Assembly (NCBI GenBank): GCA_963663385.2
Contig: CAXXXD010000001.1
Coordinates: 1 to 64,000, forward strand
Length of the DNA: 64,000 nucleotides
From: Oceanispirochaeta sp.
GTDB lineage: Bacteria > Spirochaetota > Spirochaetia > DSM-2461
Direction: 5' to 3'
Position 1 is the first letter of the stretch. Every line of letters starts with the position of its first letter. The translations under genes and the position numbers were made by a program. This document shows, one piece after another, positions 8,511 to 37,818 of the stretch. The notes beneath the pieces were generated by a model. The model had not been told where the DNA came from. It made no database searches and saw nothing but the letters and a program-made list of their open reading frames with translations.

Positions 8511-9432
8511 TTGTGCCACCGCCGTTAAGGGCAATATTCACAGCGGTAGCCGCTGTAGTGAGAGTTGCCGCATTCAGGGCTCCCGAGACTGTAACTGTAC
8601 CCCCGGTTTCTCCGCTGACATTGAACGTACCGGCACCAAGATTTGCAGAAGCTATTGCAGCTCCTCCGCTGCCCTGAAGAATCAGGCTCTCCCCGGCACC
8701 GGAAGTAACCGCAGCAAGAATAATCAAACCTGTTCCGCTGTTAAGAGTTGCATCTTCCCCAAGTGTAACGGTATTGGAATAAGTTTGAGTGCTTGAAGAT
8801 GTAATAGTTGTGGTATTTATTGTAGTCGTCCCGGTTACTGAAAGGGTTGATACACCCGTAACAGTATCTGTCGGTCCATCACCGAATACAGCATTACCTG
8901 TCACGGTCAGAGAGTTTGTACCACCTGTTACCGTACCATTAAAAGTGGCGGTGCTTGCAGTAATATTCGAAGCGGCACCTAAAGAAAGGTCCCCGCTGAA
9001 AGTAATCGTTCCCCCGGCTAAAGAAATATTATCACTTATGGTTGAACCTACAGTAAACGCATCATTAACAGCGATATTACCACCAGTGCCATTCAATACA
9101 CCTGTGGCGTTTAAAGAAAGTCTTCCGTTTATCGTTAACCCTTCTGTTGCGGTACCGACATTTAAGCTAGCCCCGGCCTGAACTGTTAGATTTCTGCATT
9201 GCGCTCCAGGTGTGTTGATAACCGGATAGACCCTCCCTCCACCAATTCCATTGGGAACAATGGCATTCACTGCATTTGTAGGAACACCTGAATCCCAATT
9301 TGCAGCAGTTCCCCAGTCATTTGTAAAATTATCTCCAGTCCATGTTGTTTGAGAATATGAAAAGGCTAAGCTGATAAAAATGAGTAAAAAGAGGAAAATA
9401 TCTCTTTTGTAAAACTTAATAAATCTATCCAA
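1..9432 (-). CDS. Giant repetitive secreted/surface protein (beta-helix or filamentous-haemagglutinin-like, Gly/Thr/Asn-rich); continues past the left edge of the window
   Basis: ORF 1318..9432 (2704 aa) has an N-terminal signal peptide and a TTWTG...DWGTAANW motif. The same repeats continue to base 1 through seven +1 homopolymer insertions. Confidence 0.85.
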
Positions 9433-22373: not shown

Positions 22374-23924
22374 TCAAATGAACACAGGTCCTTTATCAAC
22401 TGTAATATCTTCTTTTATATTCCAGGGTAAAAGAGCTTCCCAATCCTGTTCATTTTTAACTAAGGGAGCCATGGTAAACACAAAATATAGATAATCAAAG
22501 GGATTCAAATCGTTCTGTTTCGCGGTTTCAATCAGAGAATACATCCCGCAGGAACTGTCTGCCCCTTTGGGATTCCCGGAAAATAACCAGTTTTTCCTCC
22601 CCAGAACAAAAGGGCGGATAGCGTTTTCACTGGCATTATTATCCGGAGTCAGATAAGGACTTTCCAGATACCGAATCAAATAATCCCATTGATTCAATGC
22701 ATAGTGAACAGCCTTTCCTAAAGCACTCTCGGGTAGAACATTTTCAGATCGTTTATCCAGCCATCGTTTAAATGCATCAAGAATAGGTCCGGCCTTGCTT
22801 TTCCGTTGTTCCAGAAAATCTTCTAAAGATAATTTCTTGTTCCTTAGATCATTTTCCAAGGCATATAACTTCTTGATATGCTTGATCCCTTCCAGAGCAC
22901 TTTTAGATTTTTTACTGGCTTTATCAGCCTCAAAGAACTTCCTTCTGGCATGAGCAAAGCATCCAACCAGAGAAATATCCGGATTTCCCTCCACTGCAGT
23001 TTTGTACCCTTGATATCCATCGGTTTGGAGATACCCTTCAAAATCTGTGAGAAAATTCTTTGCATGTTCCGATGCCCGTGTCGGATGGTATTCGTAATAA
23101 ACAGCTGGCTGTCCCGGAGGACCGCCTCTGGCCAGCCACATATAGGATTTTTGTCCGTTATCCCGACCCGGTTCATTCAAAACCTGTACGGTTGTTTCAT
23201 CCATTTGAAGCACCGGACCGGATTTTAAGTGTGTTTTCAGTAGTTCAAAGAGCGGGAGAAGAGCTTCATAAGCCTTTTTCTGCCAATTACTCATGTTCTG
23301 ACGGCTAATCCGGGCTCCCATGCGCTCAAACCGCTTTTCCTGGCGGTAAAAAGGAAGATGATCCACATACTTATTTACCATCAAAAATGCCAGCAGACCA
23401 GGAGTGACAATCCCTTTGGGGATGATGGAAGGCTCCGGAGGGGCAATCTTTACAGCAGGAACATCTTCATCGGCGGTTCCTTCACAATTACCACAGGCAT
23501 ATTTAAACCGGATAATCCGCTCTACCCAGATACGAGGAGGGATTACATGCAGCTTCTCAGATATTTCTTCTCCGATCTTCTTCAGTTCCGTACCACAGGC
23601 ACAGGTTTTCTCATCCTCAGGAATATCTAGAATCTTTTCCTTACGGGGAAGGTTTTCATCCAGAGGTTTTCTTCCTGTTTTCTTACGCTTGTAAGAGGGG
23701 ATTTCCTGTTCTGCAGAAGTATCTTCCTCAGGTGTCTGTGATTCATCTGTATCAAATAATTCAATTTGTTCCGGAATATTTTCTGCTCTTCGGCCGAATT
23801 GCCTATGTAGAGCCAAAGCCAACTTTTCTTCAAGAAGCTGATATTTCTTTTCCCAGTTCTGGTTCTGAGCTTCAAGTTGTGAAATATACTCCTGGGCCTC
23901 TTTTGGAAGAGCTGCTTTATCCAT
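22374..23924 (-). CDS. tnpC: IS66 DDE transposase TnpC
   Basis: KYVDHLPFYRQ, DET, LQTDGY, CFAHARRKF and DNNASENAIRP...GRKNWLF motifs. Confidence 0.95.
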   Translation of the reverse strand: MDKAALPKEAQEYISQLEAQNQNWEKKYQLLEEKLALALHRQFGRRAENIPEQIELFDTDESQTPEEDTSAEQEIPSYKRKKTGRKPLDENLPRKEKILDIPEDEKTCACGTELKKIGEEISEKLHVIPPRIWVERIIRFKYACGNCEGTADEDVPAVKIAPPEPSIIPKGIVTPGLLAFLMVNKYVDHLPFYRQEKRFERMGARISRQNMSNWQKKAYEALLPLFELLKTHLKSGPVLQMDETTVQVLNEPGRDNGQKSYMWLARGGPPGQPAVYYEYHPTRASEHAKNFLTDFEGYLQTDGYQGYKTAVEGNPDISLVGCFAHARRKFFEADKASKKSKSALEGIKHIKKLYALENDLRNKKLSLEDFLEQRKSKAGPILDAFKRWLDKRSENVLPESALGKAVHYALNQWDYLIRYLESPYLTPDNNASENAIRPFVLGRKNWLFSGNPKGADSSCGMYSLIETAKQNDLNPFDYLYFVFTMAPLVKNEQDWEALLPWNIKEDITVDKGPVFI

Positions 23925-23965
23925 AAGAGAATTTTAGCAAAGACAGGAATTTGAGTAAATTCCTT

Positions 23966-24313
23966 TCAGGCAATTTCTGAATATTTCAATGTTTCGTGGG
24001 TTTTCCAGAAGTCTATACCCTTCAGAAGCATAGAGAGTTCTTCAAAACTGATGGCTCTGGCGGCTTCTTGCGTGTCTGGCCAGGGGAAACGGTGTTTTTC
24101 CAAACGCTTTTGCCAGAGGCAAAACCCTGTCTGATCCCAGTAGAGGGCTTTCAGAATACGTCTCTGTTTATTACAGAATAGGAAAAGAGAACCGCAAAAA
24201 GGATCAAGAGCCATCTCATCCTGAACTTCTACGGCCAAACCGTTTATGGCTTTCCGCATATCAGTAACACCGGGTCGGATGAATATCTTGATTTGAGAGA
24301 AATCCTTAATCAT
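23966..24313 (-). CDS. tnpB: IS66 accessory protein TnpB
   Basis: TDMRKAINGL...LFLFCNK...LYWD..GFCLWQKRLE motif. Confidence 0.95.
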   Translation of the reverse strand: MIKDFSQIKIFIRPGVTDMRKAINGLAVEVQDEMALDPFCGSLFLFCNKQRRILKALYWDQTGFCLWQKRLEKHRFPWPDTQEAARAISFEELSMLLKGIDFWKTHETLKYSEIA

Positions 24314-24647
24314 TGCACTGTTCCAGGGTCTGAAGTAGTTTCTTCAATGTCATTGTATCAAAATCCCGGTCCAGTATTATCCGGTAGGATTTCCATTGTA
24401 ATTCAATGGATGAGCCTGTGACTGTTTCCCTGGGTAGTTTAGCAGAAACTTCAACCAAATATTGTGGTTTCCGTTTGTATCGCTTCCTCCATCCATGGAA
24501 TGTTGTTGCTTTTAGGTTTTTATCCCGGCAGAATTGATTTACTGATTTGCCAGATAGTTCCCATTCTGCCAGAAGAGCATAGCGCTGATCCATTTTATAT
24601 TGTTTCAAGGAAGACCTCCTTGTGAGATTGTACTGGGAGGTCTTCAA
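24306..24647 (-). CDS. tnpA: IS66 accessory protein TnpA (HTH)
   Basis: W..SG.SV..FC.......TF.GWRKR motif; first gene of the IS66. Confidence 0.85.
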   Translation of the reverse strand: MKTSQYNLTRRSSLKQYKMDQRYALLAEWELSGKSVNQFCRDKNLKATTFHGWRKRYKRKPQYLVEVSAKLPRETVTGSSIELQWKSYRIILDRDFDTMTLKKLLQTLEQCND

Positions 24648-25157
24648 AATTATTAGATGCGGTTTATTTGACGGTTACAAATCACCAATCTTGCTTACAT
24701 GAATATTATATGTTTTCTGTTTTCAGTTTATAATGGTTTGAGATGTCTTCAAATATTGTCTTATCTATAATTCTCTGGATCTTTTGACTGTAAGATTCCT
24801 GACCTTCAAGAACAAAAGGGTAGTATCCTGAACCAGGATATTCCTTGAAATAACCTTTCAGTTTTTTTATTTCACCGATTTGGGATTCAAAGGAGGATCT
24901 ATTATTAATAATCTCCTTAGGTAGTTATGAAATTACTTATCACTAGAGTACACTCCAATAATCGTTTAGATATATTTGACTATACTCCAATATTAAGAGA
25001 TTTCAAGTCTATTCCGGGTAGACCAGCGGCAAAATTCTCCTCGATTCCAACAGTTTAAAATTAGCACACTGATCGCGCATGGCAAAGTAATCTTTATCCT
25101 TCTTCAGGTAGTGATTCGCTCCAGTAAGGCTGACTGCTGCATGCGTTTGTACCACCA

Positions 25158-26234
25158 TTATTTTTTCAGTAAATCATACAGAGAACGATTTACATATATT
25201 ATTTCCTTTCCCAAACGAAATGATTCTAAAACACCAATAGATTCCAACTCTTTTAAATATTTGCTTGCAGTTCTTCTTTCGGCGATTCCTGCCTCCACTA
25301 GATATGCGATCTTCGTATATGGTTGGATAAAGAGTAATTCAATTAATTCTTTTGAATAAATTGTTTTAGGTAATTTATCTTTACATTCCTCAATAGTCTC
25401 ATTCAGTAAGTTTATAATTGAAGAAATAATTTCATACGTTTCTTTTGATGTTTCTTCTACTGCTTTTAGCATATAGATTATCCAATCTTCCCATCCTTCA
25501 GTTTTGTGCATCTTTTGAAGCAATCGGTAGTACTGGTTTTTATTCTTTATGATATAAGAACTTAGAAATAATATAGGTGTGTCTAGTAATCCTTTCAGCA
25601 CAAGGTATAATACATTGATGATTCTACCTGTTCTTCTATTTCCATCATAAAATGGGTGGATTGATTCAAATTGGTAATGGATAATTGCCATTTTTATCAA
25701 ATAATCTGTTTCATCATCTGAATTAATGTATTTCTCAAGATTTGCTAGCAAATCTTTTATTACATCTTCATTGTCTGGGGGAGTATAGAGCACTTCTCCT
25801 GTAGTATCGTTAACTAAACTGGTTCCTGGCAATTTTCTTAAACCAGCCGAATTTTGTTCCAATTCTTCTTGAATCGACAGGATCGTATTTACTCGTAATA
25901 TGTCGCTTTTCTTAATTTCTGAATATCCTAACCATAAAGCTGATCTATAGCTAAGAACCTCTTTAGTCGCCGGATCTATTTTTTGTTCTTTTGCTACAAT
26001 CGCTTTATACAGATTGTCTTGTGTTGTAATAATATTTTCAATTTCAGAACTGGCCGATGCTTCCTTGAGAATAATAGAGCTTAATAATATTGAATCATTC
26101 GGAAGGAGCGAACAGTATCCTTTTAAACGGGCTAACTCCCTGTTGGCTGAAATAGCATGTTTTAATACGTTTTTAGACTCAATGTCGTGCTTAGGAGGAA
26201 GTTTAGGTAGATCATTATTTGGTATCTTACTCAT
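25158..26234 (-). CDS. Fic family protein (Fic_N + Fic + C-terminal wHTH, SoFic-like); integron cassette
   Basis: SSEIEN inhibitory helix; HPFYDGNRRTGR motif (G>R variant). The start is probably MSKIP at 26234. Confidence 0.9.
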   Translation of the reverse strand: MSKIPNNDLPKLPPKHDIESKNVLKHAISANRELARLKGYCSLLPNDSILLSSIILKEASASSEIENIITTQDNLYKAIVAKEQKIDPATKEVLSYRSALWLGYSEIKKSDILRVNTILSIQEELEQNSAGLRKLPGTSLVNDTTGEVLYTPPDNEDVIKDLLANLEKYINSDDETDYLIKMAIIHYQFESIHPFYDGNRRTGRIINVLYLVLKGLLDTPILFLSSYIIKNKNQYYRLLQKMHKTEGWEDWIIYMLKAVEETSKETYEIISSIINLLNETIEECKDKLPKTIYSKELIELLFIQPYTKIAYLVEAGIAERRTASKYLKELESIGVLESFRLGKEIIYVNRSLYDLLKK

Positions 26235-26243
26235 AACATGTTC

Positions 26244-26271
26244 ATTGTAACCCAATAAATGTACACGTCAA
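26244..26271 (-). promoter_or_regulatory. Putative sigma70 promoter inside the Fic cassette (TTGACG-16-TACAAT), possibly leaderless
   Basis: The -10 ends 9 nt before the ATG and no Shine-Dalgarno is visible. Confidence 0.55.
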
Positions 26272-26340
26272 TAGCTCATGTGCATATATTGATGATTTTT
26301 GCTCATAAACACTTACTCGTGTTCACGGTGTGTATATAAC

Positions 26341-26778
26341 GAGACTGTAGAAAAACTCAAACTGGGTATTTTCAAGGTTCCCCTGAAAGCACTCATTTGG
26401 AAAAATCATTCATCTCTTTGATTTCAATATTCAATCCGATTAAAACCGGCTATATTCAACTATAATTGGTTTATCCTACGCTATACCCATTCTTTAGCAC
26501 TTTTCCGTATTCCTACGCACTATACTGCTGGATTTTCCCGATATTACGCACCATACAGTACAACAACCACTGTGTCCGGACCTTTTCCGTACCCCGTAAA
26601 GTAAAGCGATTCAGCTTTTTCATTCCGGCAATATGTCCGAATACAGGTTCTACCGTACTCATCCGTTTTGCATAAACTGATCGTCCATAGGGCGTATCAA
26701 TTTTCTCCTTCATACCCTTTTATAGAATTTTACCATGAATTGGCTGAGAGCTGTTGAAAAGGTGACTTTTTCAGTCTC
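26341..26778 (-). mobile_element. Internally deleted IS1182 (438-bp non-autonomous derivative) inserted in an attC R' box
   Basis: Near-identical to both ends of 31788..33578, and flanked by a duplicated AAC. The right inverted repeat lacks 3 nt. Confidence 0.93.
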
Positions 26779-26884
26779 AACATTCTTTTAAGCTGCAACG
26801 CGTCAATTGGCGCAAAACTTGCCAAGCGAAGCGACCAGCAAGTTTCGTGACAATAGCGTTGACAGGTTGAAGCAGTTGTTAGGC
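26779..26884 (-). other. attC site of the DUF4386 cassette (R' interrupted by the IS1182 derivative)
   Basis: R'' GCCTAAC contains the gene's stop codon. Central palindrome ACGAAACTTGC...GCAAGTTTTGCG. Ends GAATGTT; the empty site restores GTTATAT. Confidence 0.85.
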
Positions 26885-27484
26885 AATCTTTCTTTTATTT
26901 TTTATCACATTTATTGGAAACCAAAATATTAAAAGAACTTCTCCAATAAATGTAATTATTGAAATTTCCAATGTACTATTTGGTTGTATAATTTTTACAA
27001 CAGTATCAAATATATAACCAAATCCAGAAATAAATACTAAAACACCTAAAATCTTGGAAATAAATTTCGATTTATAAATCAAATAAGCCAAAACAATCAA
27101 ATGTATTCCAAATACAATTAGGCCATAACTCCAAAGTATATTAAATTGTGAATATTTTAAATTTGGTTCGGTTTTACCTAAATATATATAGATTAGTATT
27201 AATAATAGATAAACTGCATAAACGATTCTTAGTATCATGCTAATTGTTGCTATTTCTTTGTTTACATTAATAAAAACATTTTTTAATGTATATCCAACTA
27301 ATATATCAAGTATAGCTACCAAGCAAAATAGTAACAAACCAAATCCAAGCATTGAATTAATATTTTGATTTGAATATTTTTCTAAAATATTTAGTCCCAA
27401 AGGAGCTATAACAGCCATAACTAATAAGTAAAATGATGATATAAGTTTGTTCTTATCCATTAATGAAAGTGTGATATTTTTCAT
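26879..27484 (-). CDS. DUF4386-like membrane protein; integron cassette
   Basis: About 6 TM segments; WSYGLIVFGIHL and IGEVLLIFW motifs; AGGAGG RBS; stop codon inside R''. Confidence 0.7.
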   Translation of the reverse strand: MKNITLSLMDKNKLISSFYLLVMAVIAPLGLNILEKYSNQNINSMLGFGLLLFCLVAILDILVGYTLKNVFINVNKEIATISMILRIVYAVYLLLILIYIYLGKTEPNLKYSQFNILWSYGLIVFGIHLIVLAYLIYKSKFISKILGVLVFISGFGYIFDTVVKIIQPNSTLEISIITFIGEVLLIFWFPINVIKNKRKIA

Positions 27485-27508
27485 TCTATCCTCCTACAAT
27501 TACTAACA

Positions 27509-28240
27509 CTAAAAACACTGAAATTCCGCTTCTTCCCTACCCCGACAATGAATTAACAGATCATCCGCATAGCGAGCAAAAACAAGCTGAGGATGCTCTC
27601 GATTCATCCATTCATCAAAAGCATAATGTAGAAACAGATTCGCCAGCAAAGGACTGATGACGCCACTCTGTGGCGTCCCCAGTTCTCTGTCAATGACATT
27701 TCCATCAGCATCCTCTGCGGGGGCCTTCAACCATCTTTCAACATATAGCACTACCCAGGCGGGCGGATTATGATGCCGCACCGCTTTCAGTAATAATTCA
27801 TGATTAATGGTATCAAAGAACCCTTTAATGTCCACATCGACAACCCAGTCATATTTCCAGCACCTCTTCCGAGTTATTGCCACAGCCAGATGGGCCGACT
27901 TCTTCGGTCTATACCCATAGGAATCAGGATGAAACAATGGTTCGAGAAGCGGTTCAGATACATTCTGGCCGTCATCTGAGCGACTCGATCAAGCACCGTC
28001 GGGATTCCCAATGGTCTTGTCCCACCGCTCTTTTTAGGGATGTCTACACACAGGACAGGTTTGGGAAAGTAACTTCCGGAAGACATACGATTTCAAAGGG
28101 CGTACAGGATATCACTCTCCCGATCTTTCATCCCCTCCAGAGTCATACCATCCACACCGGCAGGCTCCCTTCTTCCTTACCTGTTTGTACGCCTTCCAAA
28201 GCACTTGCTTTGAAATAGCAAACGGTTTTGTCTGTCCCAA
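27509..28240 (-). pseudogene. ltrA: Group II intron reverse transcriptase pseudogene
   Basis: RT motifs IPKKSGGTRPLGIPTVLDR, DSYGYRP, DIKGFFD, GTPQSG and YADD. Frameshifts near 28165 and 27955, an in-frame TGA at 28093-28095, and a C-terminal truncation. Confidence 0.9.
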
Positions 28241-28797
28241 TAATTCCTCCCGAATATATTCCGGTTGATTACCGGACCAGACTGAATATGTCAGCTCCTT
28301 CGCTCCAGTCTCATTACAAGACCTTCAACACTACTACGAGCTGATCCGTCCCTGTGCCGCGCATCGGTACTTTCTCGCTTCCAGTTCTTCTGTTACGCGA
28401 TTTTCCCTTAACATCACGACGACAGGTTCCCACGTTCCTCAATATCGCCTGTCTTTGGCTCGTGCCGCCTTTATACCGGAGACCGCATACGCACTTAATC
28501 AGGTTACGCCGCATACTTATTCATGACGCATGCAACGCCCGTCATTTTCGATCTCATCGTACAAACTTTCGATACCTCATCGACGGTTCACTTTCGTTCA
28601 CCTTCCAAAGACTCACCTGACAGGTTCAATTCCTGCTTTTTCCGTCAACGTTCACCACAAAGGCTCTTAACCGATGCAGCTTGCGGTGGTTTGAAACCTG
28701 CTCCTGAAAGCCGATTCCGAGGGGCCTACCCTCATCAATACTGTAGTTACGAAATTAACTCCATCTATAAGATTAAAGGTGCCCTCTCGTGGCACAC
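27509..28797 (-). mobile_element. Group II intron, RmInt1-like (bacterial class D), 3'-truncated, inserted in an attC left arm
   Basis: 5' end GTGTG at 28797. Domain I motifs GGAATCGGCTTTCAGGAGC and GAACGAAAGTGAACC. The RT breaks off just after YADD, so the maturase domain, DV and DVI are absent. Confidence 0.9.
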
Positions 28798-28817
28798 GTT
28801 GCATGGCATTGTTAAAT
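28798..28817 (-). other. Left arm of the ATPase-cassette attC (R'' ATTTAAC + AATGCCATGCAAC), cut by the intron
   Basis: R'' is the exact complement of this cassette's core GTTAAAT (30112..30106). The arm matches the other attC left arms. Confidence 0.85.
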
Positions 28818-28826
28818 AGCCTCCAG

Positions 28827-30038
28827 CTAATAGAGGAATCCGAATAGGTGTAATGGTATTTCATATTTCGATCCGTATAAAATATCATCTTTGACTATAA
28901 ACCCGTTTTCTGGATTTTCTTTCAGCTGTTTTCTATCTTTATTTTTTCCACCAATTTCAAATAAATTTCCATCTATTTCAAAATCACCGATTTTACTTAC
29001 ATGGATATTATATCCTGAGTTTTTAACCATATTAATAAAAAATATCTCTCGGATAGTTCCTATATGCGATTCAAACCCGATTTCATTTGATATTGAGGAA
29101 TATAGATCGGGGTTATCTAAATACATTTTTTCTGTTTGTTTTAGAATTTGGCTTCCAGCTTTATTCATTGATAATAAAGCGATGAGTCCTGTTTCCTGTA
29201 ATATTTCCAAATAATTCTGAACAGTCCTATTATCAAGTCCAATGTTCTTGGAAATACTATTTCGGTTTAGTTCTCCTGGTGGTATCGTTGCCATATAAGC
29301 CAGTATCCGTTTGAAATTGGATAGATTTTCTGTTTTTAATTTATAGTGGTTTGAGATGTCTTCAAATATTGTTTTGTCAATAATTCGCTGGATCTTTTGG
29401 CTATATGAACCCTGACCTTCCAGCACAAAAGGGTAGTATCCTGCACCAAGATACTCCTTGAAATAGCCTTTCAGTTTCTTAATTCCGCCGATTTTTGACT
29501 CAAAGGCAGATCTATCATTAATTATTTCTTTGAAAGAGATGGTTCCGGTATCAGCTATATCATTGAATAATAAATATTCTCGAAATGATAATCCCCCAAT
29601 TCTGTAAATTACACCTCTTCTTGATAGATCATATGTTCCTTTAATCAGATCTATACTGGAACTTCCTGAGAATATGATCTTTATATCCGGGTATGAATCA
29701 TAGAGATTTTTTAATTCCTGGTTCCAATTAGGGTATTTATGTATTTCATCCAGGAAGAAATATCTTACCCCATAATCCTCATACAGAGTATTTACAAATT
29801 CAAGTAATGTGTTTTGAGAAAAGTAAATATTGTCAATTGATGCATAGATGCATTCATCAATATTTGGAATTTGTTCTTTTATGTACTGAAGAAGTAATGT
29901 TGTTTTACCTGTACCTCTGGGACCAATTAATCCTGTTAGTCGATTATCTGTATTGAAATCAGAGTATATGTATCTATGGTGTGAATATTTAGTGTATTGT
30001 AGGAGTCTTTTATAGGTATTTATGAAATTGCTTATCAT
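28827..30038 (-). CDS. AAA_14 ATPase with C-terminal DUF4143-like domain; integron cassette
   Basis: Walker A GPRGTGKTT, Walker B FFLDEIH, SGSSS, LSRR and EIGGKNK. GGAG RBS before the ATG at 30038. Confidence 0.9.
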   Translation of the reverse strand: MISNFINTYKRLLQYTKYSHHRYIYSDFNTDNRLTGLIGPRGTGKTTLLLQYIKEQIPNIDECIYASIDNIYFSQNTLLEFVNTLYEDYGVRYFFLDEIHKYPNWNQELKNLYDSYPDIKIIFSGSSSIDLIKGTYDLSRRGVIYRIGGLSFREYLLFNDIADTGTISFKEIINDRSAFESKIGGIKKLKGYFKEYLGAGYYPFVLEGQGSYSQKIQRIIDKTIFEDISNHYKLKTENLSNFKRILAYMATIPPGELNRNSISKNIGLDNRTVQNYLEILQETGLIALLSMNKAGSQILKQTEKMYLDNPDLYSSISNEIGFESHIGTIREIFFINMVKNSGYNIHVSKIGDFEIDGNLFEIGGKNKDRKQLKENPENGFIVKDDILYGSKYEIPLHLFGFLY

Positions 30039-30073
30039 TTGAGTACACTCCAATAATTATTGCCATATTTTTG

Positions 30074-30101
30074 ATTGTACTCTATTTTTATAAAATATCA
30101 A
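30074..30101 (-). promoter_or_regulatory. Putative cassette-internal sigma70 promoter (TTGATA-16-TACAAT)
   Basis: An equivalent TTGAAA-16-TATAGT is kept in the decayed copy near 24980-25010. Confidence 0.55.
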
Positions 30102-30105
30102 GCCT

Positions 30106-30211
30106 ATTTAACGCCCAAATCAGCTGCAACTTTGTCCCGAAGGGTTGGCGTAGTTTTTGAGAAATCAAAAACTATGACAAAAAAGTTGTCAGTTGCATTT
30201 GATTGTTATGG
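30106..30211 (-). other. Intact attC site of the TerB_N cassette (106 bp)
   Basis: R'' CCATAAC contains the stop codon; ATGCAACTGACA arm; central TAGTTTTTGA/TCAAAAACTA hairpin; GTTGCAGCTGAT arm; R' GTTAAAT. Confidence 0.92.
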
Positions 30212-31729
30212 CGCCATCTTTTTTATAAGTTTCTCTTTTCTTTGCTCAAAATCTTCTATTGATTGTCCGTATTTAATTGCTCTATTACATACATTTAATG
30301 CTTTTTCATATTCTTCTTTTTTATCATAAATTATGACTAAACGTTTAAATGCCGGTATATTTCCAATAAAGCCCTTTTCTTTTATTCCTTCAATTTCCTT
30401 TTTTATATTCTTATCTCCAGTAATAGAAGCAAGTTGTTTGGCTCTATCTATTTCTTCTTTGATATTGGCCTCAGTCATTTCATCAAGAGTGTCTAAATCT
30501 AATTCACAATATTCAATACATTTATCTATATATTTCTCATCTAATGATCTGAATTTATAATAAAAGTCTTGTAATTGTATAAAAGAAAAATGTCTGCTTA
30601 CTGGACTTCTTTTATTCTTTGAGAGTTCGCTCAATAATTCTTTCTCTTGCTTCTCATCAAATTTAATTACTTTATTTGGTTTCGCTGGGGCTTTCTTTTT
30701 AGGAAGGGATTTACCTTCTTTCCTCATTTCGGCAAGTTTCTTCTTTACGTCTTCATGAGCAGTTTCTAAAAAGTTATACATTTCCCTTTTTAATTTGAAA
30801 TTCTCAGCTAAAAGGGGAATAGAGATTGATTTATCGATAATGGACATGTTTGCAAAGATGCCAACATCTTGTTTATTGACTTTCTTTATTTCTGATGCTG
30901 TCAAATATTTCTTTAATTCGATCTTGTCTGTGCCAAGTTTGGATATTACAATATCGGTGAGGCATTGTAAAAATAATTCCGGATATTTCTTAATATAATT
31001 CTTATTATTAAATTCAAAGGTCGATGCCATGCGCATAATATCCTTTGGGAATAGAGGAATATCAAAACTGTAATAGCAGATCAAGAATAAATTATCAGAA
31101 AAAGCTAATTCATGTTCTTTATCTAGTGATTTAATAAAATCTAAAACAAGATCGCCTCTGTTATGCAACATACATGATAGAACTACAGCATTTGCTGAAT
31201 AAGATTGAAATGATTTATTTGTATGAACATCTCTTAATTTCAGAATAACGGAAATTGCTTTTTCAAAATTTCCTGATAATAGATGTCTTTCCAATCCATA
31301 ATATAAGATAAAAACAAAACCAATATCGATTGCTGTATTGTATGGATTTGCGAGTAAATTTAAATAAACCCATTTTTGTTCCGGTGATAACTCTGTATAT
31401 GTTGGATAATATGATGGCCTTTCAACTAAACGAATATCTTTTGGTTGAGATATTTTTTGATTTGTATATATAAGACTTGGTTCTTCATGATTTTGAAACG
31501 AAATTGTTATTCGGTAACCATCAATTTCGAAGAAATTTTCATCTCCTTTTGATTGAATATAATTTTTGTATTTTCCATCCCCTATCCAAATTAGTTCTTT
31601 TAAATCTTCGTGTATTGTTAAACCTTTTACCGATAGACTTGCATTTTTAATAGGAGCAATTTCTTTCTTTTCATCTTGTGATTCTTTAAATTTCTGTTTT
31701 GTTCTTTTTCCAAAATTAAATAATCCCAT
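30206..31729 (-). CDS. TerB N-terminal-domain protein with a C-terminal TPR-like region; integron cassette
   Basis: PSYYPTYTELSPEQKWVYL..L...IGFVFILYYGLERHL (TerB_N-like); C-terminal AFKRLVIIYDKKEEYEKALNVCNRAI. Confidence 0.7.
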   Translation of the reverse strand: MGLFNFGKRTKQKFKESQDEKKEIAPIKNASLSVKGLTIHEDLKELIWIGDGKYKNYIQSKGDENFFEIDGYRITISFQNHEEPSLIYTNQKISQPKDIRLVERPSYYPTYTELSPEQKWVYLNLLANPYNTAIDIGFVFILYYGLERHLLSGNFEKAISVILKLRDVHTNKSFQSYSANAVVLSCMLHNRGDLVLDFIKSLDKEHELAFSDNLFLICYYSFDIPLFPKDIMRMASTFEFNNKNYIKKYPELFLQCLTDIVISKLGTDKIELKKYLTASEIKKVNKQDVGIFANMSIIDKSISIPLLAENFKLKREMYNFLETAHEDVKKKLAEMRKEGKSLPKKKAPAKPNKVIKFDEKQEKELLSELSKNKRSPVSRHFSFIQLQDFYYKFRSLDEKYIDKCIEYCELDLDTLDEMTEANIKEEIDRAKQLASITGDKNIKKEIEGIKEKGFIGNIPAFKRLVIIYDKKEEYEKALNVCNRAIKYGQSIEDFEQRKEKLIKKMAP

Positions 31730-31787
31730 AAATTACTCCTTTTTCAATACTAAATGACTACACTTTATTATTTTTTGTCGGCATAAC

Positions 31788-33578
31788 GAGACTGTAGAAA
31801 AACTCAAACTGGGTATTTTCAAGGTTCCCCTGAAAGCACTCATTTGGAAAAATCATTCATCTCTTTGATTTCAATATTCAATCCGATTAAAACCGGCTAT
31901 ATTCAACTACAATTGGTTTTATCCAACGCTATACCCATTCTTTAGCACTTTTCCGTATTCCTACGCACTATACTGCTGGATTTTCCCGATATTATGCACC
32001 ATACAGTACAACAACCACTGTGTCCGGACCTTTTCCGTACCCCGTAAAGTAAAGCGATTCAGCTTTTTCATTCCGGCAATATGTCCGAATACAGGTTCTA
32101 CCGTACTCATCCGTTTTGCATAAACTGATCGTCCATAGGGCGTATCAATTTTCTCCTTCATACCGGCCATGGGATTGCTCCCTTTTCCATCCGGCACTTC
32201 CTTCAGTATGGCAACCTGACGGGCCTTTGTCGTTTCCTTTCTTATACATTTTGAACGAAGTTTACAGTCACGACAATTGCGTATATGCCCTTGATAGGAC
32301 TTTCCGGTATACCGACCGTCATTGCTTCTGAAGTTGGGGGATTTCAGCCACATGGCATGACCGGCAGGGCAGATCAGTTGGTTGGTTGCCGTATCCATAT
32401 AAAAGTCTTCCGGACTAAAATAGTGTTTTCCTTTTTCCGGTTTCCAGTTGGCGACTTTCTTTTTGTATCTGCCGGCATCCTGGAAGGCAACATGCCTTTT
32501 CCTGAACTGATTGTCCGGGATATAGGCATCGATCTTCTTCTCGCAGATCATCTGCATGTTCTTTTTATTATGGAATCCTGTATCCGCTGTTATGGTGACA
32601 TTGTTATAGATGTGGTCATCTATGTGAGATTCTTTGCAGCTCTTATCAATCCCCTCAAGTATCTCTGTTAGGTGTCCTGATTCGTTTACATCACCGTATG
32701 TATCGGCAAATATAATTAATTGATGCTTGTCGTCTACTGCAGCAATGCCATTATATCCCTGTATAACGCCATGTCCGGTGGACATTTTAGCGCTTTCGTT
32801 ATCAACTATATTGCTTTTAATGGGCTGATCCTGACTCCCGAAACGGTCATAATGGGTATCAAGCCATTTGTAGATTTTTTCTGTTTTTGCCTTTAGCTTT
32901 TTGATGGCTTTCTTTTCTTTTTTACGCTGCTCTTTATCTTCCCAACTGGCATCCGTATTCTTGTGTTTTTCAATCAGATAGTTTACGGATTTCTCTATTT
33001 TCTTTGTTTTGGCAAATAGTTCCGCTTTGGTTCCGCTCCATTCCTTTGAACAGTTTGAGGAGATCTTGCAGCCGTCAATGGCAAACATGTTTTTGCCGAT
33101 CAGTCCCTGTGTGTAGCAAACAGAGAGTATCATGGTAAATAGGGTTTGGCACTCTTTATGACGGGAAGAGATAAAATCGGCAATGGTTGTAAAGTGGGGT
33201 CTGGAATCGGCGGCTAGCGCCATACAGACGATATTCTCCCGGCATAACTGTTCAATTTTTCTGCTGCTGTTTATGCCTTTTGAATAGGCGTAAAGGACTA
33301 TTTTTAAGAGGATGGCAGGGTCGTAGGCGGGAGCTCCGGTTTCATCATTTTCGTAGTGGTTTTCAAAAACTGACATATCAATTTGATTGTCTATCAGATG
33401 GCATAATGTATATTCGAATGTTCCTGGTAAAATCTGTTTTTTAAAGCTTACGGGGATCATCATTGTCTGGGTATAAGAATACTCTTTATATCTGGCCATT
33501 ATTGAAAACCTCCCTTTTATAGAATTTTACCATGTTTTGGCTGAGAGCTGTAGAAAAGGTGACTTTTTCTACAGTCTC
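31788..33578 (-). mobile_element. IS1182-family insertion sequence (complete, 1791 bp) inserted in an attC R' box
   Basis: 15-bp perfect terminal inverted repeat GAGACTGTAGAAAAA; flanking AAC duplication; single transposase gene. Confidence 0.95.
31961..33499 (-). CDS. IS1182-family DDE transposase
   Basis: GAPAYDP..LLK..LYAY, PHFTTIADF, AIDGCKI, ADTGF and VEPVFG motifs. Confidence 0.95.
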   Translation of the reverse strand: MARYKEYSYTQTMMIPVSFKKQILPGTFEYTLCHLIDNQIDMSVFENHYENDETGAPAYDPAILLKIVLYAYSKGINSSRKIEQLCRENIVCMALAADSRPHFTTIADFISSRHKECQTLFTMILSVCYTQGLIGKNMFAIDGCKISSNCSKEWSGTKAELFAKTKKIEKSVNYLIEKHKNTDASWEDKEQRKKEKKAIKKLKAKTEKIYKWLDTHYDRFGSQDQPIKSNIVDNESAKMSTGHGVIQGYNGIAAVDDKHQLIIFADTYGDVNESGHLTEILEGIDKSCKESHIDDHIYNNVTITADTGFHNKKNMQMICEKKIDAYIPDNQFRKRHVAFQDAGRYKKKVANWKPEKGKHYFSPEDFYMDTATNQLICPAGHAMWLKSPNFRSNDGRYTGKSYQGHIRNCRDCKLRSKCIRKETTKARQVAILKEVPDGKGSNPMAGMKEKIDTPYGRSVYAKRMSTVEPVFGHIAGMKKLNRFTLRGTEKVRTQWLLYCMVHNIGKIQQYSA

Positions 33579-33692
33579 AACGCCCGCATCAGCTGCAATT
33601 TTGTCCCGCAGGGTTGGCGCAGATTTTGAAATGAGCGAAGCGACTTCAAAATCTGTGACAAAAAAATTGTCAGTTGCATGCGTTTGTTCTAC
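33579..33692 (-). other. attC site of the Lamassu cassette (R' interrupted by IS1182)
   Basis: R'' GTAGAAC; ACAAACGCATGCAACTGACA arm; CAGATTTTGAA/TTCAAAATCTG hairpin; ends GGGCGTT. The empty site restores GTTATGC. Confidence 0.9.
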
Positions 33693-33746
33693 AGTGTCGA
33701 CCAGTTACCTTGTTATATTTGTAATAGCTTTAGGTCATTAATATCA

Positions 33747-35591
33747 CTATTCAATAAATCCACGTCTATCACCTTCTGTATTACCGCAAAAATATATGAA
33801 ATTAATTTTATTAATAATTTTCTGCTGAGGAGTTTTGTTATCAAAAACGATAATCTGCCTATCTTCGCTTGTATCTGATAGATAATCAAAAAATCGATCT
33901 TGAATATCTTCACTTATTTCATCATTAGTTTCTCGTAGAGCATTCTTCCCATGATAGGTTGTTAAAGGGGAATCTAAAACAATTAGAGGATTAAATGATA
34001 TTCCTTTTTCAACGACCCAATCTAGTATAGAGATTAACAACGCAGAGTATGATATTGCTCTGAATCCTTTTCCAAAACTCTTTCGAGTTTTTCCAGAAAT
34101 TGTGTAATCAAAAGTTCTATAACCAGTATCAAAGGTAATTGATTCCCAACCTGGATAACCAAATCCTTCTAAAATGGAAGATAATTTTGTACAAAAATCT
34201 TTTATATGAAGAAATTCTTCCGAATGTTCAGAGTCAGGCTTTGATTTCCCTTTTTCAATTTTCTCATTTAATTCAGCTTCTTTTTCAAATAAATAGTTTA
34301 TTCTTTCAGTAAGAATTGTAACCTTATTGGAAATAATTTGATTTTGTTCAAATCTTTCTAATTTTTCCTTAAATGGTATTATCTTTTCATTATTATGCTT
34401 TTTCTTTTTAACTGCCTCTATCTTACTTTCAGACAATACACTCAACTCTGAATTAATATCCAATACTTCTTTTTCTAAATTAACAATCGATTCACTAATA
34501 TCATTTTTTTTATTGGATATTTTTTTGTATTCTGCTTCAATAGATTCATTAAATACTTCTTCATCAAAATCAGAATCAAGTTCTGATGTAGTAATTTCAC
34601 TATCACAAATTGGACATGCTACAGTATTCAATTGAGAAATCAAGCTATTACCTTCTGACACAAATTGCATTCGTTCTAAATCTGAATTATAGTGCTCAAG
34701 TAATAACTTAAAACGATTGATTAGTTCTTTCTTGAATTCCTTTTTATTCTCATTTTCAAGAATGTCATCATTTATCTTCATTATTTCTTTATTGATATCG
34801 CTAGATACAGTCAAGATTCCATCTATGTCTAGTTTTGTTTTGTTGATAACTTGAGAATAATCGGTACCATCATCGAGAAGAGCTTTTTTAGCAGAAAGAG
34901 CCGTGATTTCCCTATTTGTTTCATCTCTCTCTGAAATGATGAACTCAATTTGACCTAATATATGAGTTTTCTTTTCCTTTTCAATTAAAGGGTTAATAAA
35001 ATTGCTATCATCCGTCCCGGATAATATATATCTAAATAGTGATTGATAAAAAGTTTGATCTGGATATTGACCAGTAGCATAAATAGGTGACTTTTCAGTG
35101 ATAATTCTATCCTCTGGGATAACAGTAAATTTCCTTAAGTCTCTAAAACTAATTTTCTTCTTCTCTGTTTTTTTCTTTTTAAATTCTTTGTTATACATAC
35201 CGCATGTTTTTAATAAGTAGACAGACAAATTATTTTCAGAAGAGGAAGAATGGTTTAACAGAAGCTTTTCTTCTTTTTTCGTATTATCATAGTTTTCAAA
35301 AGTACATTCTTTAATATAAACATCTGTATTTTTGATGTTTCTATATATGGTTAGTGGTTTTTCTTTATATGTGCTTATTTGTAGATAAAAATCTTCATAT
35401 CCAATCGCTTCAGGAATTTCTTTTGGATTTTCACTTCTTCCCAATAAGAAATCTATACACGAAAAAGCGTATGATTTCCCTGTATCTGAAACACCAGAAA
35501 TTAAATTAAATCCTTTTTTAAATTCTAATTGAGATTTTTTGTTTTGAGTTCCAATAACAACTAGTTTTTTTATATAGAATCCATCAAGCAT
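33747..35591 (-). CDS. lmuB: SMC/Rad50-like ABC ATPase of a Lamassu / ABC-three-component system (LmuB)
   Basis: Walker A GVSDTGKS, coiled coil with a CPIC zinc hook, signature GKGFRAI, Walker B IVLDSPL. Confidence 0.85.
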   Translation of the reverse strand: MLDGFYIKKLVVIGTQNKKSQLEFKKGFNLISGVSDTGKSYAFSCIDFLLGRSENPKEIPEAIGYEDFYLQISTYKEKPLTIYRNIKNTDVYIKECTFENYDNTKKEEKLLLNHSSSSENNLSVYLLKTCGMYNKEFKKKKTEKKKISFRDLRKFTVIPEDRIITEKSPIYATGQYPDQTFYQSLFRYILSGTDDSNFINPLIEKEKKTHILGQIEFIISERDETNREITALSAKKALLDDGTDYSQVINKTKLDIDGILTVSSDINKEIMKINDDILENENKKEFKKELINRFKLLLEHYNSDLERMQFVSEGNSLISQLNTVACPICDSEITTSELDSDFDEEVFNESIEAEYKKISNKKNDISESIVNLEKEVLDINSELSVLSESKIEAVKKKKHNNEKIIPFKEKLERFEQNQIISNKVTILTERINYLFEKEAELNEKIEKGKSKPDSEHSEEFLHIKDFCTKLSSILEGFGYPGWESITFDTGYRTFDYTISGKTRKSFGKGFRAISYSALLISILDWVVEKGISFNPLIVLDSPLTTYHGKNALRETNDEISEDIQDRFFDYLSDTSEDRQIIVFDNKTPQQKIINKINFIYFCGNTEGDRRGFIE

Positions 35592-36099
35592 TTATTGTCA
35601 CTCCTCGGAATAGTGGCTCATTTACAAATTCATTTCCCCAGTTTTCAATATTTTTATTTATGTATTTATCTAAGTCTATCTCTGTATATAATTCGAATTT
35701 TGCTGTTATCCATCTTATTCTATCTTTCAACTTTTCTGTATATTCACTTCTAAAATGCTCAAGAAATGGACTGAGTAATTCTGTTTGAGTATAAAAGATT
35801 CCTTTTTTATTCATTTCAACCTGTAAGAGTTCTTTTGAAATCATTTTATTCAATCCAGCCCGAACTGCTTTTCTTTTTATTAACAATTGTGTAGAACGGT
35901 AGGGGGCTTCGGGATGCAGGTTTTTCGGGCCACCAATATCTTCTGTGAAAAGAATAAGATAATCAAAAGAAATTATTTGGTTTAAGGAAAGTGGCTTGTT
36001 AAACCCGTTTATTATAAATAAAGATCTTAACCCTAATTCCAGTGAATGATTAAATAATTGGTTATTTTTATAGTAAGAAAGCATTATTCTTTTACCCAC
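35584..36099 (-). CDS. lmuC: ABC-three-component middle component (LmuC-like)
   Basis: FNHSLELGLRSL...FDYL...DIGGP.NLHP motif; overlaps both neighbouring genes. Confidence 0.8.
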   Translation of the reverse strand: MGKRIMLSYYKNNQLFNHSLELGLRSLFIINGFNKPLSLNQIISFDYLILFTEDIGGPKNLHPEAPYRSTQLLIKRKAVRAGLNKMISKELLQVEMNKKGIFYTQTELLSPFLEHFRSEYTEKLKDRIRWITAKFELYTEIDLDKYINKNIENWGNEFVNEPLFRGVTINA

Positions 36100-37166
36100 C
36101 TTATTTTTTTATCATTGACCAAATGATGACATATACCTTCTTTATCTTGCACTTTTATTTCATAAAAAAGTGGATTGTTATTGAATGAACCTCTTTTTGC
36201 TTCTTTTATTGCTTCTTTCAGTCTAATAAAACCATTCTCAAAATCTGATTCAACAATATCAATGATCAAGCTAAAGATTTCATCTTTTAATTCTTCAAAA
36301 GAATTACTATTATACGGTAGCTCATCTCTACTGAATTGATACAATGAATCCGCAATGTAAAAACTATCCCGTTGTCTTTGAAAATGATTAAGCAATTCTT
36401 GTTTATCAGAAATATCTTCTATACTGGAAATAAATCTATTAAGATAATCTGAATAAGCAGCAAATATTTCTCTAATATAAACCAACTCATTCTTTTCTAT
36501 ATCTTTATTTGCCTTTGGCAGTTCTTCTCTTGTTTTATTTAAGCCTCCACCAAACCATCTAGAAAAGAAAGGTGTCTGTCTAAATTGATCAATGAAAGTA
36601 TTTGGCTCAAGCCAGTCTATAATGGAAAAATTGAATGTATCGAAATATTTTAATATCTCACCTTCTAACTTTATATTTTCTTTCGTTGTAATTCCTTTTT
36701 CACATTTATCAGCCCAATTGTTTTTTAATTCCTGTTTCAATTTTTCAGGGTTTTCTATAAGTCCTAATAATTTTGGACCTATTCCCTTAGGTGAAACAAA
36801 ATAGTATTTTCTTGGAACTGAATAATCTTTATTAAAAGTATAGTAAATTAATTTACCGAGCTCGATATAAATTTCTGCGGGTGAAAGCATAGATGAATAG
36901 TGCTTACATTGATAAAGATCCCAAACTTGCTTCTCTTCATTGACTATTGCACATACATCCCGGCCTTTATCACCAGCTCCCCCAACACCATAGACTTTTA
37001 TATACTGTTTTGTCACATGATAATGTGCCCATTGTAGGACTAATTCCTCATATTGATCTTCGTCAAGAGCTTCAAGTATCTGATTTGGTTTCAATACAGG
37101 ACCTAATAGTATTTCACTGTTTGATAACCGAGAAATATTTTTTGGTTTTTCTAGTTCTGTAAACAT
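36084..37166 (-). CDS. lmuA: Lamassu effector: PD-(D/E)xK nuclease plus ABC-3C C-terminal domain (LmuA)
   Basis: YEEL...GGAGDKGRDV...YQCKHY nuclease motif; C-terminal GICHHLVND..IRWV motif. Confidence 0.8.
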   Translation of the reverse strand: MFTELEKPKNISRLSNSEILLGPVLKPNQILEALDEDQYEELVLQWAHYHVTKQYIKVYGVGGAGDKGRDVCAIVNEEKQVWDLYQCKHYSSMLSPAEIYIELGKLIYYTFNKDYSVPRKYYFVSPKGIGPKLLGLIENPEKLKQELKNNWADKCEKGITTKENIKLEGEILKYFDTFNFSIIDWLEPNTFIDQFRQTPFFSRWFGGGLNKTREELPKANKDIEKNELVYIREIFAAYSDYLNRFISSIEDISDKQELLNHFQRQRDSFYIADSLYQFSRDELPYNSNSFEELKDEIFSLIIDIVESDFENGFIRLKEAIKEAKRGSFNNNPLFYEIKVQDKEGICHHLVNDKKIRWVKE

Positions 37167-37315
37167 TTAATGTTTCTACCTCATTTACATGACTATTTAT
37201 AATCGATTATTAAGCAACTCTCCCACTGGGATATTCTCTAAATTCATTCTTTCAAAGGACAACTTAAATTATGTAAAAATATATCACTTTTTCACAACAT
37301 AATTAATTTGCATCT

Positions 37316-37490
37316 GTAGAACGCCAAAATATGCTGCGGAGCGGCCTGGCCGAAGGACAGGTACAGGCGCTTTTCTTGCAGACTTATTTTAAACAGTAAT
37401 TTGTTTTTAAGAAAGAACTATTTATCAGCATTCTGTATCTCTGCAAGAAATGTGATCTGTAGCGACGACAGTATCATTTTCTTGTTATGT
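37316..37490 (-). other. Long attC site (175 bp) of an ORF-less cassette
   Basis: R'' ACATAAC; AAAATGATACTG arm pairing with GCAGCATATTTT; TTTCTTGCAGA/TCTGCAAGAAA stem; R' GTTCTAC matches the Lamassu R''. Confidence 0.8.
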
Positions 37491-37818
37491 CTACAGCATT
37501 TTGTAAATCACCGATGCCATATCAGGCAAGAATATCTTAATAAACGTAGGTGAAGGCGAATTCCCTTATTTTCACTTCTGCCAGCCGCAACCGGCGTCAA
37601 AGATTGATAATCAGTGTAGTGTGAGCATCAATCAACCCGTATCAAAACCCTAAAACCTACTAAATCATCTGGCAATTATGAAAGAACCAGAAGTACAAAA
37701 TGTGTTCGATATAACTTATTATCTCTTGAACAAGGTAATCCCAAAATCCATAGAATTACCCTGCACCCCCGCAGCATAACTGTCAATTCTAACAATTCCA
37801 CTGACACTCCCAGAGCAC

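Follow-up and report, generated by a model that had tools for sequence, protein, structure and literature searches.

Why should two copies of one transposable element, lying in the same array of gene cassettes, both occupy exactly the three bases at which integron recombination takes place? This question is raised by a 64,000-nt stretch of Oceanispirochaeta sp. DNA (the window, positions 1–64,000 of contig C1 of genome G000), in which a full-length insertion sequence (IS) and an internally deleted copy of it interrupt two attC sites. Integrons serve bacteria as their main gene-capture systems. The integron integrase (IntI) crosses over at the GTT triplet of the attC R' box, and cassette boundaries lie at G/TT. 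The original prediction held that the IS targets attC at this triplet and in cassette orientation, and it is borne out by five of six elements in the genome, by relatives, and by metagenomes. G000, related genomes, and metagenomes all show this position and orientation, the duplication of 3 bp, and the enrichment at attC. The reading that we favor, with a probability of roughly 85%, is that a broad clade of DDE elements of the IS1182 family is directed to the attC R' GTT, where its members insert in sense orientation and duplicate 3 bp.

The full copy is bounded by GAGACTGTAGAAAAA and TTTTTCTACAGTCTC, which form a 15-bp perfect inverted repeat, and contains a single 512-aa open reading frame (ORF) on the minus strand, the strand of all cassette ORFs in the window (Table 1). 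The predicted transposase scores 280.8 bits against the NCBIfam model NF033551 (IS1182 family transposase; cut-off 270), with residues 32–508 aligned to positions 27–486 of the 488-position profile, and matches the Pfam domains DDE_Tnp_1_6 (1.8e-25), DUF772 (1.3e-14), and DDE_Tnp_1 (4.7e-11). Assignment to the DDE class, which agrees with the original prediction, is made by domain matches. The name IS1182 used in that prediction holds for the family and not for the element, as named IS1182-family transposases on plasmids share only ~25% protein identity with it (tblastn, plasmid records). Judged by these comparisons, the element is a DDE-type IS of the IS1182 family and not IS1182 itself. Bases 1–36, counted on the cassette strand from the transposase-proximal end, form a near-palindrome. 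The short copy joins a part matching the first 377 bases of the full copy (98.9% identity) to a part matching its last ~58 (94.8%), and its 1349-base skip is present also in contigs of the public runs X2 and X4.

Both copies lie between duplicated AAC triplets, GTT on the cassette strand (26338–26340 and 26779–26781 for the short copy; Table 1 for the full copy), and both have the orientation of the cassettes, as can be read directly from the triplets and the ORF strand. On the minus strand the empty sites would read GTTATGC (31781–31787) and GTTATAT (26334–26340), and the invaded R' box reads GTTGAGA, again as predicted. An iterated nhmmer search of the whole genome found attC-like repeats in four clusters, on contigs C1, C2, C3, and C4. 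Seven uninterrupted sites (alignment A3) were the only sequences used to build a covariance model, R1. Their RNAalifold consensus contains 16 pairs, of which 7 show compensatory changes. A 5-bp R''/R' stem (ATAAC/GTTAT) is separated on either side by a 3-nt unpaired spacer from an L''/L' stem that contains bulged bases; the modeled fold is that of an attC. R1 detected 20 sites in the genome at an expect value (E) of 0.01 or less and a 21st, at 26774–26888 of the window, with E 0.015, giving a total of 21 detectable attCs. Uninterrupted attCs of the genome carry a single GTT at the R' position.

Four of these attCs form the window array (26779–37494), all on the minus strand and alternating with minus-strand ORFs. 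The two that are invaded are dissimilar, as originally noted: the attC sequences upstream of the IS differ and score 69.4 and 22.5 bits with R1, and both matches stop where the IS begins. For the attC next to the full copy, the bottom strand folds with -25.9 kcal/mol, a value equaled by 0 of 200 shuffled sequences. The attC next to the short copy has an nhmmer E of 3e-14, a figure obtained with this site itself among the search seeds. The window holds no integron integrase; one integrase gene in the genome exceeds the TIGR02249 cut-off (381 bits; C2:1688005–1688940), beside the C2 cluster. The window array is thus an attC cluster without an integrase.

Table 1. Positions of the insertion sequence copies, their attC targets, and intron-invaded attCs (window coordinates unless a contig is named)
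Feature	Position	Strand	Details
Full-length IS1182-family IS, 1791 bp	31788..33578	-	Perfect 15-bp inverted repeats at the ends; the genome has 5 full copies in all
Predicted transposase gene, 512 aa, DDE type	31961..33499	-	NF033551 and Pfam matches
Inverted repeat at the transposase-start side (IRL)	33564..33578	-	Abuts attC body
Inverted repeat distal to the transposase gene (IRR)	31788..31802	-	Abuts start of next cassette
GTT (AAC on +), R' triplet of invaded attC, upstream duplication copy	33579..33581	-	Read directly
GTT, downstream duplication copy	31785..31787	-	With 31781-31784 gives GTTATGC, the original R' box
Internally deleted IS copy, 438 bp, both ends kept	26341..26778	-	Lacks ~1350 internal bp and 3 bases of IRL
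Downstream GTT copy with the outer R' bases (GTTATAT), opening the Fic cassette	26334..26340	-	Read directly
attC invaded by full IS	33579..33696	-	R1 match 33575-33696, 69.4 bits, E 2.4e-14; nhmmer E 2.5e-22; fold z -3.9
attC invaded by short copy, including GTT 26779-26781	26779..26888	-	R1 22.5 bits, E 0.015 (weak); R''/L''/L'/R' layout read
Uninterrupted attC of the same array, R' GTTAAAT (reference)	30106..30215	-	R1 103.4 bits; member of A3
Uninterrupted long-type attC of the same array	37316..37494	-	R1 91.3 bits
attC abutted by IS	C3:734374-734550		R1 79.8 bits
attC abutted by IS	C4:1180547-1180656		R1 77.4 bits
attC abutted by IS	C4:1191746-1191855		R1 75.8 bits
Intron-invaded attCs	C2:1667254, 1675286, 1678619, 1685245; C3:732844; C4:1180547		Loci L010, L011, L012, L014

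A blastn search of the genome recovered five full copies of the IS (at C1:31788, C3:287670, C3:736915, C4:1180653, and C4:1191852), one short copy, and two fragments. The left flanks of all copies end in ATAAC, and all intact right flanks begin with AAC. When the flanks of the genomic copies were scored for attC, as the original prediction had proposed, five of the six two-ended elements (four full copies and the short one) proved to adjoin an attC on its 3' side, at the R' GTT, with R1 scores of 22.5–79.8 bits, and the wider sets described below agree. Given 160948 GTT sites, 12962 GTTAT sites, and 21 attCs in the genome, the probability that at least five of six elements would lie at an attC R' GTT is 2.3e-19 for random GTT sites or 6.7e-14 if only GTTAT sites are considered; hence, placement at attC is not due to chance. 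Furthermore, the flanks on both sides differ in all copies, which indicates separate insertions instead of a single segmental duplication.

Two loci on contig C3 are more complex. The copy at C3:736915 looked truncated, but its inverted repeat proved to be split by another IS of ~2.35 kb. This second, unrelated IS (C3:734562–736914) has the ends GTAAGCGG... and lies within the inverted repeat of the C3 copy with an 8-bp duplication, AGAAAAAG. At C3:755302, an attC GTT is followed by GAGACTTCGGAAAAA, in which 12 of 15 bases are like the inverted repeat. A true IS end of 34 bp lies 4.1 kb beyond (C3:759418–759451) and is followed by GTTATGA, and a Fic cassette, an intron-invaded attC, and other genes occupy the interval. 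This arrangement (locus L013) may be an IS wreck, an IS-bounded segment, or a coincidence; it was excluded from the insertion count, and its remnant site (C3:755206–755306) was included among the model-supported junctions.

A DNA search of 61 genomes, G000 and 60 relatives, found related DNA in 16 (G000 included), and the elements have 65–88% nucleotide identity, so they represent distinct variants. A protein-seeded scan of genome contigs added elements from Oceanispirochaeta, other Spirochaetaceae, Candidatus Theseobacter, and one Lysobacterales genome. After removal of duplicates, 19 transposase-proximal (IRL) junctions in these relatives had flanking DNA. At ten of them an R1-detected attC of 31–79 bits ends at the IS (L018, L019, L020, L022, L023, L024, L036, L037, L039, and L052); three more are weak with R1 (L026, 21 bits; L035, 20 bits; L054, 17 bits), and two are attC-like by eye only (L050 and L056). 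All 16 model-supported junctions, 6 in G000 and 10 in relatives, lie at the R' end in sense orientation and none at R'', where GTT with A or AT after it is likewise present on the complementary strand. The two Lysobacterales elements (31–44% identical) have AAC on both sides, beside sequence of the AACGCCCGC type, and must therefore be in the opposite orientation.

A search of metagenomes with an alignment (A4) of eight transposases yielded 79 loci with 45–64% amino acid identity. IS ends were located with a degenerate end motif that left the flanking triplet free and were kept if they lay at the expected distance from the gene. IRL could be placed in 64 loci, following GTT in 62 (AAC and GAT once each), and IRR in 52, preceding GTT in 50 (AAC and GTC once each); in 41 of the 43 two-ended loci the triplet is identical at both ends. 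The 5' GTT is preceded by C in 59 of 64 junctions, and in most cases AGGC, ATAT, or AGAT come as the next four bases after the 3' GTT, in agreement with GTTRRRY. Read by eye, most of these flanks have the look of textbook attC ends, such as ...CCTTAATTCAACCGTT preceded farther upstream by ...TCTAACAAATCATTTAAG.... A score for R- and L-box pairing reached at least 11 at 24 of 37 sites, compared with 161 of 1901 control GTT sites of the same loci, and at least 12 at 16 of 37 compared with 36 of 1901. Duplex energy between the attC ends fell below the 5th percentile of the controls at 17 of 37 sites and below the 1st at 9 of 37, an enrichment; this measure is insensitive at AT-rich sites, and the pairing score was used in its place. 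Minimum free energy folding of 170-nt reconstructed empty sites paired the GTT with an upstream AAC in 17 of 61 and was dropped as a classifier, since upstream coding sequence misfolds. The outer bases of R'' form 1.76 pairs with their own 3' flank across the IS and 1.60 with other flanks, a difference reached in 727 of 5000 permutations. No excess is expected here, the outer R' bases being part of the next cassette, and own-flank pairing gives no site-specific proof that the flanks were once contiguous. Taken from these sequences, attC targeting appears much wider than the two copies in the window and extends across many environmental bacteria.

Several loci contain repeated insertions. Locus L076 has the order attC-GTT-IS-GTT-120-bp element-GTT-120-bp element-GTT, L060 contains a tandem IS-GTT-IS (1846–1949), and L068 and L115 each carry a second IS copy at the next attC. 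The 120-bp miniature elements of L076 (2924–3166) have the same ends as the IS and stand head to tail at one attC. Already invaded sites have thus received a further insertion at the GTT that borders the attC body, which suggests that the determinants of recognition lie in the attC body and GTT, not in the outer R' bases. The nearest relatives in plasmid records, from Pseudoalteromonas and Catenovulum, show 42–46% identity (tblastn). In the cultured Pseudoalteromonas piscicida 2515, a 42%-identical relative lies within a run of R1 matches, and its junctions read attC...GGCGTT, then GAGGCTGTAGAA...CTACAGGCTC, then GTTATAT.

The most serious alternative to a clade directed to attC is that the transposase prefers only a short (C)GTT(A) and that arrays accumulate copies as harmless DNA while copies elsewhere are purged. 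The strong conservation of C-GTT-A at the junctions, the presence of the non-attC copies at GTT as well, and the non-essential nature of cassette arrays all agree with this idea. However, with 12962 GTTAT sites and 21 attCs available, the finding of five of six elements in attC has a probability of ~7e-14, and selection may favor arrays but not a single nucleotide position within them. Non-attC intergenic GTTA sites are plentiful in the same arrays, and the absence of insertions at R'' among the 16 junctions also speaks against a short sequence preference. We therefore regard this explanation as unlikely. Somewhat less probable still is placement by the integron integrase, in which a circular IS with one junction GTT would be recombined into attC at G/TT. 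The duplicated triplet is the exact IntI crossover triplet, and such recombination would yield GTT...GTT without a true target duplication. In contrast to what this route would predict, R1 detects no attC-like site inside the IS (the whole window was searched), and joining the two IS ends would give a simple palindrome whose loop holds GTT, with no R or L boxes. Some copies lie at GTT sites outside attC; in L065, L070, and the Lysobacterales loci the orientation is opposite, with AAC flanks, which is unexpected for a directional integrase reaction; and every element has an intact DDE transposase under purifying selection. Spread of one insertion by segmental duplication, whether for the two window copies or for all, could be suspected from the fact that the window copies belong to one array, with 5.4 kb between them, and show 98.9% identity over the part they share. 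However, the upstream attC and the downstream cassette differ for each copy, as the original prediction had argued from the flanks of the two window copies; moreover, the copies are 2–8% divergent and the same junction is found at dozens of unrelated loci, leaving this explanation next to no likelihood.

Some of our observations weigh against direction of the clade to attC. The fifth full copy (C3:287670–289460) lies at GTT/ATTAC, where R1 found no attC even with its filters off and where there is no strong hairpin; its flank occurs in public runs of three organisms, which suggests that this insertion is old. No attC was found at 4 of the 19 junctions in relatives (L034, L040, L045, and L051), three of which (L040, L045, and L051) still follow GTT, while in L034 GAT precedes one IS end and GTTAT follows the other. 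Among the metagenome loci, R1 is lineage-specific, with 9 matches at E ≤1 and ~5 of 79 loci having one beside the IS, so the attC calls there come from flank reading and from the R/L-box pairing score, a crude measure with a maximum of 14 and flexible spacers. On that score 13 of 37 sites fall below 11; by eye, some of these are attCs with an altered R'' (L067 and L086), and others are perhaps not attCs. Public runs, available as contigs in which rare forms are invisible, gave no trusted instance of transposition, circles, or excision junctions. One joint in these data ('goes back 1669', with a 30-letter side) was considered as a circle junction and rejected, as one end fits an internal IS fragment at C3:760155–760207. 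Finally, plain CGTT(A) at attC ends may turn out to be the main determinant of recognition.

For a clade directed to attC, we propose a self-mobile DDE transposon whose transpososome would capture the attC and make cuts staggered by 3 bp around the R' GTT, a chemistry inferred from the family. The transposase-proximal end nearly always faces the attC body, so that the IS reads in the cassette direction. A hairpin or extruded stem may be what is recognized, with insertion near the base of the stem as in IS1272, and by this analogy we put such recognition at about even odds. In its favor, IS1272/TnSha1 integrates into hairpins with little sequence specificity, and very dissimilar attCs are hit at the same structural position; conversely, the C that precedes GTT in most metagenome junctions indicates a sequence component. 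A search of the non-coding regions of the IS for guide-like complementarity to the targets found only 8–10-nt matches, at chance level.

Comparison with described elements places this clade apart from each of them. IS1272/TnSha1 of staphylococci, also of the IS1182 family, is described as integrating into inverted repeats or hairpins such as terminators, in the stem or at its base and with little primary-sequence specificity (PMC4923244, PMC5678879). As reported there for IS1272, no target duplication is made, part of the hairpin is deleted, and either orientation is used (PMC4923244). The two thus share a transposase family and hairpin targets, whereas the elements studied here use one nucleotide position of one hairpin class, leave the target intact, duplicate 3 bp, and have a nearly fixed orientation. 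Within the IS1182 family at large, they make up a deep subgroup of their own, marked by the conserved ends GAGNCTGTAGAAAAA and by specificity for attC. The IS1111-attC elements (ISPa21, ISPst6, and ISKpn4) are portrayed as a monophyletic subgroup with a fixed attC position and one orientation (PMC3001079, PMC11187229). They are said to insert near the attC 5' end, antisense to the cassettes (PMC3001079), by means of a DEDD transposase guided by a seekRNA from the non-coding region (PMC11187229). As far as those descriptions go, the likeness is that both groups occupy a fixed attC position in one, or nearly one, orientation. They differ in that only DDE/IS1182 models matched our transposase, in that the present insertions are in sense, occupy the R' GTT at the 3' end, and duplicate 3 bp, and in that complementarity between IS and attC does not exceed 9–10 nt here, which is chance level. 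Group IIC-attC introns such as S.ma.I2 are retroelements that, in the account cited, insert into the bottom strand near the attC 5' end and lie antisense to the cassettes (PMC3001079); they are attC-specialized like our clade but differ from it in chemistry, position, and orientation.

With cassette boundaries at G/TT, an inserted IS becomes the 5' part of the next cassette, as had been proposed, and the IS, the next gene, and its attC together constitute one composite cassette. The invaded array is split, and the upstream attC keeps its body and GTT while its outer R' bases become GAGA. The five full copies show 2–8% DNA divergence and all have intact ORFs of 512–514 aa, and the four of equal length have a synonymous divergence (dS) of 0.06–0.24 with a ratio of nonsynonymous to synonymous divergence (dN/dS) of 0.05–0.09. 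Such divergence with every ORF intact is unusual for one IS in one genome. The low dN/dS and intact ORFs indicate that selection maintained a working transposase while the copies diverged, and that they were not decaying where they stood. This pattern fits several separate arrivals, and it would equally be seen if active sublineages had long coexisted within a single genome. A 1680-nt contig from public run X1 matches 31300–31787 with 17 differences, and its match stops at the IS boundary, which hints that a version of this cassette without the IS exists. We consider it possible, if doubtful, that the clade reads folded attC, that IntI excises and re-inserts IS-gene composite cassettes, that the IS spreads between genomes in this way, and that the five divergent copies represent separate imports. 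If true, transposons would travel between integrons as cassette cargo.

The IS shares these arrays with other mobile elements. At six attCs, the end of an antisense group II intron stands in place of the 5' (R'') end (Table 1); at L010 and L014, RF02001, RF01998, and RF00029 matches lie on the opposite strand, and the cases at L011 and L012 were recognized by shared flank sequence. By sequence, these six invasions resemble the classical group IIC-attC introns. Taken together, the IS and introns have invaded about half of the genome's 21 attCs. A degenerate group II intron also occurs in the window (27500–28797, minus strand; RF01999 at 28615–28733 and an RVT_1 fragment at 27509–27937). It lies inside an attC and begins with GTGTG directly after ...TTTAACAATGCCATGCAAC; it is in sense orientation, whereas published attC introns are antisense, and the same type of junction recurs on C3 near 756330. 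A complete IS66-type unit with three ORFs (22374–24647, minus strand) stands at the array edge, beside a truncated attC start and a 211-bp, 84%-identical fragment of the ATPase cassette gene (24708–24918). The cassettes themselves (33747–37166 and 25158–31729, minus strand) encode parts of a predicted ABC-3C defense system (CTD6 and MC2), a Fic/SoFic protein, an AAA_14/DUF4143 ATPase, a TerB_N protein, and a DUF4386 membrane protein. Elsewhere in the window, a 2704-aa ORF (1318–9432, minus strand) is made up of many 372-nt repeats arranged in 1971-nt super-repeats that are 87–100% identical.

To our knowledge, two specialized kinds of attC parasite have been known so far, the IS1111-attC elements and the group IIC-attC introns. 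The literature searched, which lay outside subscription journals and the ISfinder and TnPedia pages, contained no description of IS1182-type elements targeting attC, and the present clade is apparently an undescribed class of integron parasite. It would constitute a third and mechanistically different class, a classical DDE transposon at the integrase crossover triplet, found in several phyla, and would offer a natural system for studying how a DDE transposase reads a structured site; the cultured Pseudoalteromonas relative makes such experiments feasible. Array annotation would also be concerned, since the IS splits arrays and its small derivatives may pass for cassettes. For the host, in which about a quarter of the attCs are invaded by the IS, cassette expression and array stability would both be affected.

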